DNA of 64,000 nt from a phage: the NCBI GenBank assembly GCA_024572335.1, contig GCA_024572335.1_3052.1, one strand, 5' to 3'. The notes beneath the pieces are model-generated. The model did not search any database. It saw nothing but the letters and a program-made list of their open reading frames with translations, and was not told the origin of the DNA. Below, piece after piece: positions 1 through 5,132 of this stretch (positions within the stretch are counted from its first letter, which is position 1; the number at the start of each line of letters is the position of its first letter). Made by a program: the position numbers and the translations under genes.

Positions 1-29
1 AAAAAAAAAAATTTAAACTTTATGCAAAT

Positions 30-449
30 TTATGCTAAAGCTGCTTCGCACCATTTTTTAATTTGGAATTCAGGAACTACCATGAACTGGCCTGCAAAAA
101 CAATATTGTAGAGCTTGACACCATCTTCTACCCAACGGTCCGAAATAAAACCAGCGACTTGATTCGTTGTCCATGGAGTTCCATCTGTTGCCGCCGCAAT
201 TGTGAATTTATGGTCTTTTACAACTAAAACTGAAGAACAAAGTTTCCATTTAAATGCGCTTTCTTCTGGCTCAATGAACTGACTTGAGACATAACCAATG
301 TTACCATCAGCGTCACGAACTTTAACCTCGTTACGACCAAAAACTGGATCACTTACAGAAAGAACTTCAACCAGCTTTCCTGCAACTTTAGAACGAGAAG
401 CAACGGATACATATACGTAATCACCAGTAGAGAGATTTACAATATTCAT
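30..449 (-). CDS. Hypothetical early protein; member 1 of a tandem paralog trio sharing a C-terminal domain
   Basis: 139 aa ATG ORF, SD AAGGA upstream; C-terminal motif ISDRWVEDGVKLYNIVFAGQF shared with the next two ORFs. Confidence 0.6.
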   Translation of the reverse strand: MNIVNLSTGDYVYVSVASRSKVAGKLVEVLSVSDPVFGRNEVKVRDADGNIGYVSSQFIEPEESAFKWKLCSSVLVVKDHKFTIAAATDGTPWTTNQVAGFISDRWVEDGVKLYNIVFAGQFMVVPEFQIKKWCEAALA

Positions 450-458
450 AATAATTCC

Positions 459-932
459 TTAAGCTTTACGAGGAGAAGCATAACGAGTGATTTCAGATTC
501 TTCAACAACCCGGAAGTCACCTAAGAATACGATATTGTAGAGCTTTTCACCATCTTCAACCCATTGGTCTGTGATGAAGCCACACATCCTATCAGTTTTA
601 CTTGGACCAGCGAAATCATCAATATAATCGAATTCTTCATCAGTTACAAATTCAACGCCTTTACACAACGCCCATTTAAATTGTGCATTAGACTCAGTGG
701 ATTCAACTTCTTCAACAGAAGCAAAATGAGAGCTAACACGAGTTTCCAGAAATTTAGGACTTACGTAAGCGTACTGAGTTTCAGTTTTTCCAGAACTAGG
801 AATGATTCGAACTTTAACTTCTATAACACGACCAGTACCATTAGTACGAAGTCCTACCACTTCAACTAGACGACCTGCAGCTTTAGAACGAGATGCAGAC
901 GATACACGCTTAATTTCACCGATAGTAATCAT
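459..932 (-). CDS. Hypothetical early protein; paralog trio member 2
   Basis: 157 aa ATG ORF; C-terminal ITDQWVEDGEKLYNIVFLGDF; N-terminal SASRSKAAGRLVEV resembles member 1. Confidence 0.6.
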   Translation of the reverse strand: MITIGEIKRVSSASRSKAAGRLVEVVGLRTNGTGRVIEVKVRIIPSSGKTETQYAYVSPKFLETRVSSHFASVEEVESTESNAQFKWALCKGVEFVTDEEFDYIDDFAGPSKTDRMCGFITDQWVEDGEKLYNIVFLGDFRVVEESEITRYASPRKA

Positions 933-1004
933 AATTTTTCTCTCTTTGTTGTTAAGATTTATTCTCCATGAGAGCCATTATAACAGGCTCTCTATAAAGT
1001 AAAC

Positions 1005-1499
1005 TTAATTAAGGATATTAATTACTGCACTACGTGGAACTACACTAAAATCACCTGCATGAACAACGTTCAGAAGTTCAACACCGTCTTCAATCCACTG
1101 ATCAGTTACCCATCCACTCACTGGACCTGCGAACGGACGTCGAATTGAAACAGCTTTACACAACAAATCAGTAGGCTCAATAGGCTTAACCAGAGTACCG
1201 TACATACAAGCGATATCCATATCAATACAGATGTCTTTAACGGGTTCTACTTCTTCAATCAACAGTTCAAAGTCGGTGCTTGGAAGGGCGGTAGTAGAAA
1301 TTGTACCGTATGAATTTTTAATTTCTAAGAATAACCAAGGGCCTTCAGCTTGTTTGATGAAGTTAACAATAGTGAAACTATTACCTTGAGTGGCGCCTAA
1401 AATTTCACAAAACTTTTCATAAGCTCGCACTGAAGCACCATACCAGTTGATTTGCTTTTCGTCTTTCAGGATGTAAGTAGCTGTAGTACTGATATTCAT
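1005..1499 (-). CDS. Hypothetical early protein; paralog trio member 3 (C-terminal domain only)
   Basis: 164 aa ATG ORF; C-terminal VTDQWIEDGVELLNVVHAGDF. Confidence 0.6.
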   Translation of the reverse strand: MNISTTATYILKDEKQINWYGASVRAYEKFCEILGATQGNSFTIVNFIKQAEGPWLFLEIKNSYGTISTTALPSTDFELLIEEVEPVKDICIDMDIACMYGTLVKPIEPTDLLCKAVSIRRPFAGPVSGWVTDQWIEDGVELLNVVHAGDFSVVPRSAVINILN

Positions 1500-1511
1500 G
1501 ATGTTTTCCCC

Positions 1512-2024
1512 TTAATCTAAGGTAATAAAGCCTTTTAATTCGGCGTGTGATTTGCGGAACATTACTTGATGTCCGCCAATGATAACTTGGTCATCTGGAA
1601 CTTCATAAATCGCAATGTACATTCCACGTTCTTTTAAGTCTTCACGCTCTTCTCGAGTGAACCATCTCATCATATCATATTCACTAGCGAAAGCAAAATG
1701 ATATAATGCAATAAACCACAATGGAATATAATTTTCAATTCGTGAATAATCTTTATTCCATTTAGTTTTAATAACATCATTAGCATTTTCAACTAATAAC
1801 TTATCATCGTGTGGAATAGGAATACTTTCATGGCTTTCATAATTATCGCTATGATGATGAAATGACGATGAATTAATACCGCAAAATTTTAGCCAAGTTC
1901 GAGTTTTCATAGAATCAAATCCACGATAAGGAGTTGATTGAACGCATAACTCTTGCCTAATTTTCATTATACCACTATCATCATTTAATGCGCTAAACGA
2001 TGATTCAACACGATAAATTTTCAT
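1512..2024 (-). CDS. Hypothetical protein
   Basis: Track ORF 1512..2063 begins at TTG inside a promoter; internal ATG at 2024 (MKIYRV) follows SD GAGGA. Confidence 0.5.
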   Translation of the reverse strand: MKIYRVESSFSALNDDSGIMKIRQELCVQSTPYRGFDSMKTRTWLKFCGINSSSFHHHSDNYESHESIPIPHDDKLLVENANDVIKTKWNKDYSRIENYIPLWFIALYHFAFASEYDMMRWFTREEREDLKERGMYIAIYEVPDDQVIIGGHQVMFRKSHAELKGFITLD

Positions 2025-2050
2025 TTTATTATCCTCAGTAGCTATGGTGT

Positions 2051-2081
2051 TATAATACCACAACTAACCGAGGAAGTAAAC
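2051..2081 (-). promoter_or_regulatory. Early-type promoter
   Basis: Minus strand GTTTAC, 18 nt, TATTAT; followed by SD GAGGA and ATG 2024. Confidence 0.5.
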
Positions 2082-2087
2082 AACTTT

Positions 2088-2771
2088 TTATCGTTTTGTT
2101 GGAAGAGACAGAGGATCGCACTCTTCCTCTGACGGAGCATCTTCAAGACCCATAGCATATCGCAAAGCATACTTCATCATCAGGATGTCTTTCGCACAAT
2201 CATGAATAGAATCATGCGCAACGAATCCATCTAAAGTTCCCTTTGGAAGAGGACATGTAGTCATATCACGAACAAGCAGAAGTGCTTCAATTCTGGTACG
2301 AATATCACGCTGATTCCAAAATTTACAAGGTTCTAACTTAAATGTATCAAGCTCATTCTCGGAAACACCATTAAGACGTTGAATATCGCGAATGAGATCA
2401 ACTAAAATTGGAAAATCAAACGACATTCCACGGCACCAGCCTTGAGATTTCCAAGGATCGATGTTATGTGCATTGATGTAATCATTAAATTTTGCAATAC
2501 CATCGATAGTGCTTACATCTTCATCTGATGGTGCAATATTTTTTCGAGCTTCAGGAGATTGATTTTTCCACCATTCGATAGTGCTTTTAGTAAAAAGACG
2601 ATGTCCTTTTTGACTTTTTAAGTCAAATTTAATTTTAATGCCACGTGAAACTAATTCATCGAATGTTTCAACAACTTCCGGGTTAGGGTCAAAAGCAATT
2701 ACAGCCAAATCAATAACAGCTGCTTTTTCACCGCTTCCCATCGTTTCAAAATCTATAATAAAATCAAACAT
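2088..2771 (-). CDS. dexA: Exonuclease A (DexA), DEDD-type 3'-5' exonuclease
   Basis: 227 aa, matching T4 DexA size; N-terminal FIIDFETMG acidic motif; position below dda. Confidence 0.8.
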   Translation of the reverse strand: MFDFIIDFETMGSGEKAAVIDLAVIAFDPNPEVVETFDELVSRGIKIKFDLKSQKGHRLFTKSTIEWWKNQSPEARKNIAPSDEDVSTIDGIAKFNDYINAHNIDPWKSQGWCRGMSFDFPILVDLIRDIQRLNGVSENELDTFKLEPCKFWNQRDIRTRIEALLLVRDMTTCPLPKGTLDGFVAHDSIHDCAKDILMMKYALRYAMGLEDAPSEEECDPLSLPTKR

Positions 2772-3013
2772 TAAACTTTCCTCGCTAAATCGCGAATTTG
2801 ACCTACAGTATAATCTTGGATATAAACTTTATTAATGGGCTCATCAATAAATTTTGCCATAGATTCAATATCTTTTTGCATCTCTTCAAGACTGTATACT
2901 ATCTTTGAAGCTTTTTCACGAATAGTTACATTTTCAGGTCCTGGATTTTCTTCAATGACAGCTTTAACATTTGCCATAAGAGATTTAAACTGATACCAAC
3001 TTAATTCAATCAT
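2771..3013 (-). CDS. Hypothetical small protein
   Basis: 80 aa ATG ORF, start overlaps dexA stop. Confidence 0.45.
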   Translation of the reverse strand: MIELSWYQFKSLMANVKAVIEENPGPENVTIREKASKIVYSLEEMQKDIESMAKFIDEPINKVYIQDYTVGQIRDLARKV

Positions 3014-3266
3014 TAATAATCGCCTTATAAAGATGGCTAATTTCGCCTAAAACATAATCACTGATTGTAACAGTTTTCACTTCACCACAAAAGAATTCTA
3101 ACGCAATTAAATCTCGTTCAATTTCTTCTAATTGAAGCATTAACTTGCCTGATTCAGTTTTCACATTTTTGCGATTTTTACTATAAGCTATTTCATAAAT
3201 TTCGCTTACTTTATCTTGAAGAAGATAAAACTGGTCTTTAGTTATTTCCACGAATAGCTTCCTCAA
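3006..3266 (-). CDS. Hypothetical small protein (start uncertain)
   Basis: 86 aa track ORF with TTG start; in-frame GTG at 3251 preceded by GAGGAA is a possible true start. Confidence 0.4.
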   Translation of the reverse strand: MRKLFVEITKDQFYLLQDKVSEIYEIAYSKNRKNVKTESGKLMLQLEEIERDLIALEFFCGEVKTVTISDYVLGEISHLYKAIIND

Positions 3267-3498
3267 ATTTAATTAGTAATTTACAGACACTTTCATCTAG
3301 TGTAATTACCGTATCTGTATTACTGTGATATGATTGTTTTTCAATTCGTTTAATTGCTAATATAGTATCACTTATAAGATAAAGCTTATGAAGGAGCTCA
3401 GCTCCTGTTACCATAACATCGAGATTATCTTGCTTATTAGTATGCTTCCTTATACCATCTATTAGACGATTTAAATATTTTGAATTGATGTTAATCAT
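3238..3498 (-). CDS. Hypothetical small protein
   Basis: 86 aa ATG ORF directly downstream of dda. Confidence 0.45.
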   Translation of the reverse strand: MININSKYLNRLIDGIRKHTNKQDNLDVMVTGAELLHKLYLISDTILAIKRIEKQSYHSNTDTVITLDESVCKLLIKFEEAIRGNN

Positions 3499-3504
3499 AT
3501 AGCC

Positions 3505-4824
3505 TCACACATAAAACACATCATAACGACCACGTGTTACACCAACATAAAGAAGCTGCTGAGCTAGTTCAGCATCTGCATAATGAATACAAGGCGTATA
3601 AATGAAAGCACGGTCTACAGACATACCCTGAGCTTTATGGAATGTTGATGCAGGAAGCGCTTTCACTTTACTAAACTGTGATTTAGCATCCCAAAAATCA
3701 CTCCACGGAGCTTTTCCGCCTTTATTCCAATTTTTATAAGTTTCTGCCGTTTTACCTAAAAACAGGTTAAACTTATATAGCTCTTCATCAGATGAAATTA
3801 TTTTAATCTTTTCACGATAATATTCATCATCGCCGTAAGTTTCTACTGTTAAATCCCAATGACGAATTAAGTATTCTCCAGGAACACCACGAGCTTTAAC
3901 AAACGTTGATGTATACTCTGCTTCTATAATACGAACTAATTGTCCATTATTAAAAATAATTTCTGATACAGGCTTTCCATCAATTTTATATGTTTTAATT
4001 AACGGTTCTTGCATTACAATAATTTCACCGACAATAAAATCTTTATCAGTTTCAAAAATCTTTTTACGAATAATGCTATTTAACTTATCAACAGATTTAT
4101 TCGTAAATGCCATTACGCGATTTTCAAACAAATCATCTAGTGATTTGACGATTGAAAAATAATTTACCATAAAATCGCGTAAAGCGGTATCACCAGTAAA
4201 TCCACGTACTCCATGACCGTCAACAACTTTATCATAAATCCACTTACCGTTACGAACGTCAGTAGCTACATCAATAATAGGAGCATTACTGCGTTTAACT
4301 TCAGTGAGTTCACACTGATAAAAATCTTTGTGTGTAAAGAATGGACTGATATAAGCAGTATTTTCTCCTGGATCAACAGGTCTAATTTGCTTATTATCAC
4401 CTATTCCAATTATAGTACACCACGGTGGGATAGTTGAAAGCAGAATTTTAAATAGCTTTCTATCATACATTGACACTTCGTCGCAGATTAATACCCTGCA
4501 TTTAGCTAAATCTGGTACTTCCTTCTGTTCAAAAAGAACGTTTTCTTCATACGTAACTGGGTTAATTTTAAGAATACTGTGAATAGTACTCGCTTCTTTC
4601 CCCGACAGTTTTGAAAGAATCTTTTTAGCTGCATGTGTAGGAGCTGCCAAAATGATACCAGTTTCGCCTGTTGATATTAAAGCTTCAATGATGAACTTAG
4701 TAAGAGTAGTCTTACCAGTACCAGCAGGTCCATTAATAGTTACATGATGTTTCTTTTCTTTAATAGCCCTCATAACGATGTTAAAGGCATTTTTCTGGCC
4801 TTCTGTCAAATCATCAAATGTCAT
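3505..4824 (-). CDS. dda: Dda DNA helicase (SF1B)
   Basis: 439 aa; Walker A GPAGTGKTT, Walker B CDEVSMYD; N-terminus matches recalled T4 Dda. Confidence 0.9.
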   Translation of the reverse strand: MTFDDLTEGQKNAFNIVMRAIKEKKHHVTINGPAGTGKTTLTKFIIEALISTGETGIILAAPTHAAKKILSKLSGKEASTIHSILKINPVTYEENVLFEQKEVPDLAKCRVLICDEVSMYDRKLFKILLSTIPPWCTIIGIGDNKQIRPVDPGENTAYISPFFTHKDFYQCELTEVKRSNAPIIDVATDVRNGKWIYDKVVDGHGVRGFTGDTALRDFMVNYFSIVKSLDDLFENRVMAFTNKSVDKLNSIIRKKIFETDKDFIVGEIIVMQEPLIKTYKIDGKPVSEIIFNNGQLVRIIEAEYTSTFVKARGVPGEYLIRHWDLTVETYGDDEYYREKIKIISSDEELYKFNLFLGKTAETYKNWNKGGKAPWSDFWDAKSQFSKVKALPASTFHKAQGMSVDRAFIYTPCIHYADAELAQQLLYVGVTRGRYDVFYV

Positions 4825-5132
4825 CGGAAAGTCCCTGCAATTGGAATACTAACAATACGCCCAGTATCTAGAATTCGTTGATATAATCTTTGTGTATCTA
4901 CATCAGGCTTAACATGTTTAACTTCTATTTTATTAAACCAAAACTTGCGTGGAGTCTCAACTAGTCTTGGAATTCCCATACCTAAAGCTAGTTTATATTG
5001 GTCTTTGAGAGTAGTAAAAACTCTATCAGCAATCTCTCTTTCAAAAAACACAGCAGGACGATGTTCATCAAGTGGAACTGGCGCCGTAAATCCGTCTTTG
5101 TCTCGGTAAACTATCGCATATACATAAACCAT
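4821..5132 (-). CDS. Hypothetical protein (dda.1 position)
   Basis: 103 aa ATG ORF overlapping dda start by 4 nt. Confidence 0.5.
   Translation of the reverse strand: MVYVYAIVYRDKDGFTAPVPLDEHRPAVFFEREIADRVFTTLKDQYKLALGMGIPRLVETPRKFWFNKIEVKHVKPDVDTQRLYQRILDTGRIVSIPIAGTFR

Follow-up and report, generated by a model that had tools for sequence, protein, structure and literature searches.

The three consecutive ORFs at the start of the window (the whole 64-kb stretch of DNA that was analysed) correspond, by homology and gene order, to motB.1, motB and motB-like, early genes of a T4-type phage whose products are all members of the MotB family (PF17613). The explanation that accounts best for the data as a whole, to which we assign a probability of roughly 70%, is that these genes form a motB cluster, that the C-terminal domain common to their products (the tail) has the fold of an SH3/Tudor-like small barrel, that the KOW-like N-terminal domain (the head) of MotB is the likelier DNA binder, and that the tail would be a shared protein-protein module. 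The gene triplet is already known: a 2021 publication described the head/tail relationship, and hundreds of phage genomes carry annotations of these genes as a matter of routine. The triplet therefore matters little in itself, and the modest by-products of the analysis are a reassignment of the tail fold, a charge asymmetry between domains and a frameshift in T4 motB.1. An earlier note on this DNA had reported three consecutive ORFs between positions 30 and 1499, and these were recovered with exactly matching coordinates, all on the minus strand:

30-449, minus strand: motB-like second paralogue, 139 aa, of the RB51ncORF010c / RB69 'second motB' type
33-257, minus strand: shared tail of the 139-aa protein (domain HMM E = 3e-33, family alignment)
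459-932, minus strand: motB orthologue, 157 aa (Smith-Waterman alignment to T4 MotB, Pfam motB)
462-686, minus strand: shared tail of the 157-aa protein (domain HMM E = 8e-36)
933-1004, minus strand: motB.1-motB intergenic region, 72 nt (read from the sequence)
1005-1499, minus strand: motB.1 orthologue, 164 aa (homology to T4/RB51 MotB.1, Pfam, PHROG 2333)
1008-1184, minus strand: shared tail of the 164-aa protein (domain HMM E = 1e-26)
1512-2063, minus strand: motB.2 (order as in RB51 and T4)
2088-2771, minus strand: dexA (order as in RB51 and T4)
3505-4824, minus strand: dda (order as in RB51 and T4)
139-aa protein, minus strand: near-neutral KOW-like head; very short linker; long-form tail
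157-aa protein, minus strand: residues 1-64, basic KOW-like head; 65-83, acidic disordered linker; 84-157, long-form tail (AF2, Pfam)
164-aa protein, minus strand: residues 1-85, putative LSm-like/SH3-like head; 86-107, low-confidence linker; 108-164, short-form tail (AF2)

On nucleotide comparison, the window is a segment of a Tequatrovirus genome: bases 1-2100 share 99.8% DNA identity with Shigella phage ESh31, 96% with many other Tequatroviruses and 91% with RB51/RB68. Positions 1-5000 represent the early region, on the minus strand, of a T4-type phage, and dda, dexA, motB.2, motB.1, motB and motB-like follow one another in the same order in RB51 and T4. The three genes lie where the MotB family is placed in the Tevenvirinae early region, from dexA/motB.2 to cef, with the window stopping before cef. 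All three proteins pass the gathering cut-off of 25 bits of the Pfam motB model (PF17613), the 139-, 157- and 164-aa proteins scoring 72.1, 140.4 and 35.0 bits, respectively, and they match the PHROG MotB families 1671/2333.

Elsewhere in this region, the dexA-dda interval (2771-3498) holds three small ORFs of 80, 86 and 86 aa where T4 has two (dexA.1 and dexA.2), the third being the counterpart of an extra RB51 ORF (RB14ncORF017c). The mechanically called motB.2 ORF opens at a TTG and is 183 aa long; since the MotB.2 proteins of T4 and RB51 begin MKIYRVESSF, translation probably initiates at the ATG at 2024 instead, which would give 170 aa.

The 157-aa protein displays the architecture of MotB proper ('Category 1'), i.e., a KOW-like head and a long tail, over its full length. 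It aligns end to end with T4 MotB (Smith-Waterman z = 73), and the Pfam motB model covers its residues 1-153 (model positions 2-158 of 162). In its AF2 model (mean pLDDT 84.9) the tail strands lie at residues 92-105, 109-126, 129-136, 139-144 and, after a short helix, 148-151, with a pLDDT of about 90-97 and an elongated first hairpin. Being the orthologue of T4 MotB, the 157-aa protein most likely acts as T4 MotB does. The latter is an abundant, early-made protein that binds host and phage DNA, modified or unmodified, tightly and independently of sequence; it co-purifies with H-NS/StpA only when DNA is present, alters the H-NS footprint, up-regulates or de-represses H-NS-silenced genes, is toxic on over-expression and increases burst size twofold (PMC6070864, PMC7827196). 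According to work cited in a preprint, MotB in addition compacts the nucleoid, with about 40,000 monomers per cell (bioRxiv 10.1101/2022.01.19.477023). Among the proteins considered here, DNA binding, H-NS/StpA co-purification and toxicity are established for T4 MotB alone (PMC6070864, PMC7827196).

The 139-aa protein does not differ from RB51 ORF010c (100% identity) and shares 92% identity with JS09 gp170, which occupies the same post-motB position. In RB51 its gene bears the annotation 'RB51ncORF010c, similar to motB', NCBI names it a 'MotB-like transcriptional regulator', and the protein matches PHROG 1671 end to end and the Pfam motB model in two stretches. The 164-aa protein matches PHROG 2333 (E = 1e-82) and is related to MotB.1, with Smith-Waterman z values of 44.5 and 113 against the T4 and RB51 proteins, respectively. 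The alignment to T4 MotB.1 spans the head, such that the N-terminal domain is homologous to that of T4 MotB.1; the architecture of MotB proper was not found in this protein, of which the tail alone matches. The MotB.1 head has been placed in the phage LSm-like fold family with GoF and Frd.2 (Kim et al. 2025, PMC12152347). AF2 predicts two domains for MotB.1 (mean pLDDT 80.3), with tail strands at residues 116-119, 127-137, 140-147, 150-155 and, following a short helix, 159-163. The short-form MotB.1 tail is devoid of the beta-hairpin extension, roughly 15 residues in length, of the MotB type.

The low-confidence linker of the 164-aa protein contains the motif DMDIACMY (residues 93-100, window 1200-1223). 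The corresponding pattern, D[FM]D[IV]A[SC][MT]Y(G), occurs in 96 of 296 family sequences, including those catalogued as P0052, P0076, P0081, P0105, P0145 and P0277, where it precedes the tail or a second head and accompanies differing heads. It may act as a short linear motif for docking.

Structure prediction, which the earlier note had proposed as a check, yielded with AF2 (family alignments) a confident head and a confident tail for both MotB and MotB.1, the linker between them being of low confidence. The tails, at a pLDDT of about 85-97, are five-stranded, a one-turn helix separating strands 4 and 5, and because SH3-like barrels have a helix in this place the tail fold is read as SH3-like. 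In the models the tail thus looks like an SH3/Tudor-like small barrel and not like an OB-fold. Many Tudor entries recur as structural matches of both models, which have only the tail in common. The C-terminal domain had been assigned to the cold-shock DNA-binding OB-fold (PMC7827196); the models do not support this fold, the combination of a five-stranded Greek key, a helix between strands 3 and 4 and OB-fold structural matches not being found in the tail. A PDB search with the domain profile returned no solved structure of the tail domain up to E = 10, and isolated tails matched no Pfam family besides motB at E values up to 10. By sequence the tail is a member of neither the Tudor/'Royal' nor the KOW families. 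Its conserved aromatic residues lie in G[WFY], DQW and G.[FY].

Each of the three proteins would have two domains, a variable head and a conserved C-terminal beta-barrel tail of 55-75 residues, connected by an acidic, flexible linker, and the charges of these parts differ. Heads of the MotB type have a mean net charge of +5.3 (pI about 10) and tails of this type one of -2.4; tails of the MotB.1 type average -3.6 and are never positive. In the 157-aa protein, head, linker and tail carry +6, -3 and -7, respectively. Since the head is basic and the tail acidic, the KOW-like head of MotB orthologues is the likelier DNA-binding part, and the tail may rather serve as a common protein-protein module, by which paralogues would self- or cross-associate or dock on one partner. 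The head of the 139-aa protein is near-neutral (-1 to +1 in four orthologues), MotB's basic head not having been kept, and that of the 164-aa protein is probably LSm-like and acidic (net charge of the protein, -9); both proteins would for this reason be unlikely to coat DNA in the manner of MotB, and more probably contribute further activities to the same complex or modulate it. For work on MotB, this difference in charge makes the KOW head the candidate for DNA binding and the tail a candidate shared interaction module. The argument is weaker in T4, where the MotB tail is about neutral (+1).

It is possible, if unlikely in our estimation, that the shared tail itself binds nucleic acid, in line with its published description as a cold-shock-like OB-fold, and that binding of DNA or RNA is common to the three proteins, the heads tuning only specificity or partners. 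Sso7d-type proteins and the integrase C-terminal domain are SH3-like barrels that bind nucleic acids, PWWP and KOW barrels do so as well, and the tail has conserved aromatic residues, all of which was counted against the explanation preferred here; the acidity of the tail, set beside the basic head, speaks for the head. Patterson-West et al. 2021 (PMC7827196) considered that either MotB domain could bind DNA. A further and more speculative reading, to which we give little credence, takes the tail to be not a nucleic-acid-binding domain but a phage-specific SH3/Tudor-like docking or oligomerisation module. Paralogues with different heads (basic KOW, neutral KOW, acidic LSm-like, and further types in related phages) would then assemble together or on a host target (e.g., the H-NS/StpA nucleoprotein filament), the family would represent a modular, exchangeable anti-xenogeneic-silencing toolkit, and MotB's toxic coating of DNA would be tempered or redirected by its acidic paralogues. 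A host-interaction role of the kind that the earlier note had suggested fits the published activity of T4 MotB, i.e., DNA coating and H-NS perturbation (PMC6070864, PMC7827196).

The tail was detected in 775 of 50,697 phage records, at 1494 sites, and its carriers are nearly all T4-type phages of Escherichia, Shigella, Yersinia, Salmonella, Klebsiella and Enterobacter. Copy number in related phages, another check that had been proposed, amounts to 1-3 tail copies per genome. When 1.84 billion cluster representatives were searched exhaustively with a profile, 31 matches were obtained at E up to 0.001, about 27 of which are real members, being phage-type proteins of 43-251 aa; four long repetitive proteins matched only through a short '...TEQWVE..GYL' repeat and were rejected as members. 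No relatives outside T4-type phages were found among the 1.84 billion representatives at E up to 0.001, and the MotB tail family is, by these searches, narrow and phage-specific. A word-indexed homologue search with a tail-only profile returned 48 proteins and missed the main orthologues, for which full-length queries were needed.

Within this family, a KOW-like head is combined with a long tail in MotB and with a short MotB.1-type tail in proteins of 125-126 aa from Klebsiella phages; a putatively LSm-like head is joined to a short tail in proteins of 143-169 aa, and members of about 180 aa or of about 250 aa have other or doubled heads. Patterson-West et al. 2021 (PMC7827196) had already described the common C-terminal domain with differing N-termini, divided the homologues into four categories by N-terminus and suggested that one gene might derive from duplication of the other; extra copies are present in some phages, RB69 having two motB genes, one motB.1 and a 29-aa remnant (PMC7827196). 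The scenario advanced in the earlier note, local duplication followed by N-terminal swapping, stands as far as swapping is concerned, the same tail being visible with various heads across the family. The duplication, in turn, is to be regarded as old rather than recent and local, since the paralogous tail-coding segments are only about 70% identical at the DNA level; the motB.1-motB-motB-like order is found in another genus, Mosigvirus, as well. Recent gene conversion between the copies was not seen, the longest DNA repeat being 93 nt at 71% identity. Relative to RB51, identity is about 100% over the 139- and 157-aa genes, and two sharply divergent patches interrupt DNA that is otherwise 90-100% identical: 58-62% at about 1150-1400 (the head of motB.1) and 44-65% at 1750-1950 (the middle of motB.2). 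This mosaic divergence suggests exchange of head modules, and a mosaic pattern is all that the comparison with RB51 contributes to the idea of selection put forward in the earlier note.

Mini-ORFs of 35-43 aa that consist of the tail core alone were also encountered (P0048, from Escherichia phage BYEP01, P0033 and P0046), and in one 43-aa protein the N-terminal 17 residues of MotB.2 are fused to the C-terminal 26 of MotB.1; both are signs of deletions within the motB locus.

That one or both of the extra copies (139 aa, 164 aa) represent redundant or decaying motB duplicates without a function of their own is considered very improbable. Such a view could draw on the dispensability of the region in T4, from which the 139-aa gene is absent, on the lack of a phenotype of a T4 motB.1 deletion in laboratory conditions (PMC12152347) and on the remnants of 29-43 aa and deletion fusions of some phages, but both ORFs are intact and have ribosome-binding sites, the paralogues have diverged consistently in charge and AF2 predicts well-folded domains. 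Furthermore, the 139-aa gene is 100% identical to that of RB51 and is found at an identity of at least 80% in 208 of 715 matching phage records from two genera, including Mosigviruses in which the gene order is kept.

The paralogy of the three ORFs, which the earlier note had deduced from a C-terminal motif, is borne out by alignment statistics. Each of the three proteins contains this motif (ISDRWVEDGVKLYNIVFAGQFMVV, ITDQWVEDGEKLYNIVFLGDFRVV and VTDQWIEDGVELLNVVHAGDFSVV), and Smith-Waterman local alignment with 300 shuffles gave z = 39.8 for the 139- versus the 157-aa protein, z = 16.4 for the 139- versus the 164-aa protein and z = 15.8 for the 157- versus the 164-aa protein. When the family alignments were cut into heads and tails and compared with hhalign, the two tail types proved to be related with a probability of 99.3% (E = 4e-20). 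Chance or compositional resemblance can be dismissed as an explanation of the similarity, as none of 300 shuffles, the control named in the earlier note, reached the observed score for any pair (z = 16-40), the profile-profile probability is 99.3% and all three proteins pass a curated Pfam threshold. As had also been proposed, two of the copies share their N-terminus, the heads of the 139- and 157-aa proteins being KOW-like, and that of the third is unrelated, with no homology detectable by hhalign between the KOW-type and MotB.1-type heads (probability 0.8%). The N-terminal motif given for these two copies occurs in the 157-aa protein (SASRSKAAGRLVEV); the 139-aa protein carries VASRSKVAGKLVEV, so that 'SASRSK' is off by one residue there.

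An internal duplication, with the head related to the tail, or a hidden kinship of the heads was likewise evaluated and is unsupported at the sequence level (hhalign 0.4-12%). The domain HMM, run in all six frames, located exactly three tail copies in the 64-kb window and none elsewhere in it. The motB.2 ORF (183 aa, 1512-2063) was discarded as a fourth member, with z about 0 and no Pfam match.

The genes of the cluster are closely spaced, with gaps of 12 nt between motB.2 and motB.1 and of 9 nt between motB and the motB-like gene, where the ribosome-binding site AAGGA of the 139-aa gene overlaps the motB stop codon. The motB.1-motB spacer contains GTTTAC (999-1004) and, after a 16-nt spacer, TATAAT (977-982); because this arrangement resembles the T4 early-promoter consensus it is considered a putative early promoter, and it is not listed by the sigma-70 scan. 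The putative -10 box TATAAT falls within the loop of a hairpin at 964-999 (minus strand), whose predicted folding energy is -17 kcal/mol (z = -3.3). T4 has a hairpin in the same place (T4 NC_000866 segment, about 2185-2220 in segment numbering), and the stem is GAGAGCC/GGCTCTC here versus GGGACC/GGTCCC in T4, i.e., with compensatory changes. The hairpin may affect the stability or processing of read-through RNA, or may modulate the promoter. No intrinsic terminators were found in positions 1-2900.

The T4 reference motB.1 gene (NC_000866; 119 aa, '13.8 kDa') stops within the conserved motif, its product ending …WVTDQWIGRWR (segment 2292-2651 vs window 1005-1110). It has one extra G (tggattGgaagat, versus tggattgaagac in the window), owing to which the reference MotB.1 is cut short; the alternative frame continues …EDGVELLNVVHAGEYSVVPRSAVVAILN up to its stop. 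The extra G is absent from 13 of 13 other T4, T4T, RB55 and RB59 records (a 1-nt gap, 220 vs 221 nt), and MT984581 annotates a MotB.1 of 143 aa. The 119-aa T4 MotB.1 appears to be without the last three strands of the shared domain owing to a single-base discrepancy. In the study of Kim et al. 2025 (PMC12152347), motB.1 was synthesised by GenScript and the constructs cite T4 sequence NC_000866.4; since this is the T4 sequence that they cite, the MotB.1 tested was probably truncated, and negative results obtained with the 119-aa protein may need redoing with the 143-aa form.

Compared with known systems, the 157-aa protein has the same KOW-like head and tail as T4 MotB (PF17613; PHROG 1671) and lies in the same position downstream of motB.1, although its tail carries a charge of -7 versus +1 in T4 MotB and the whole protein is net acidic (pI 5.2 vs 9.2). 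Homology between the 164-aa protein and T4 MotB.1 ('Category 2' of Patterson-West 2021; PHROG 2333), whose gene is likewise located directly upstream of motB, extends through both domains. The 164-aa protein differs in about 20 extra linker residues, which include DMDIACMY and are absent from T4 MotB.1, and in being complete, whereas the T4 reference protein is cut inside the shared domain by the 1-nt insertion. The 139-aa ORF is the same gene as RB51ncORF010c and the second motB of RB69-type phages, with no notable difference. The encoded protein shares the architecture of T4 MotB at 43-46% identity, yet the gene itself has no T4 counterpart, and its product is distinguished by a near-neutral head and the near absence of a linker. 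Finally, the tail resembles the Tudor, KOW, PWWP and chromo small barrels in fold only, with no sequence relationship to them.
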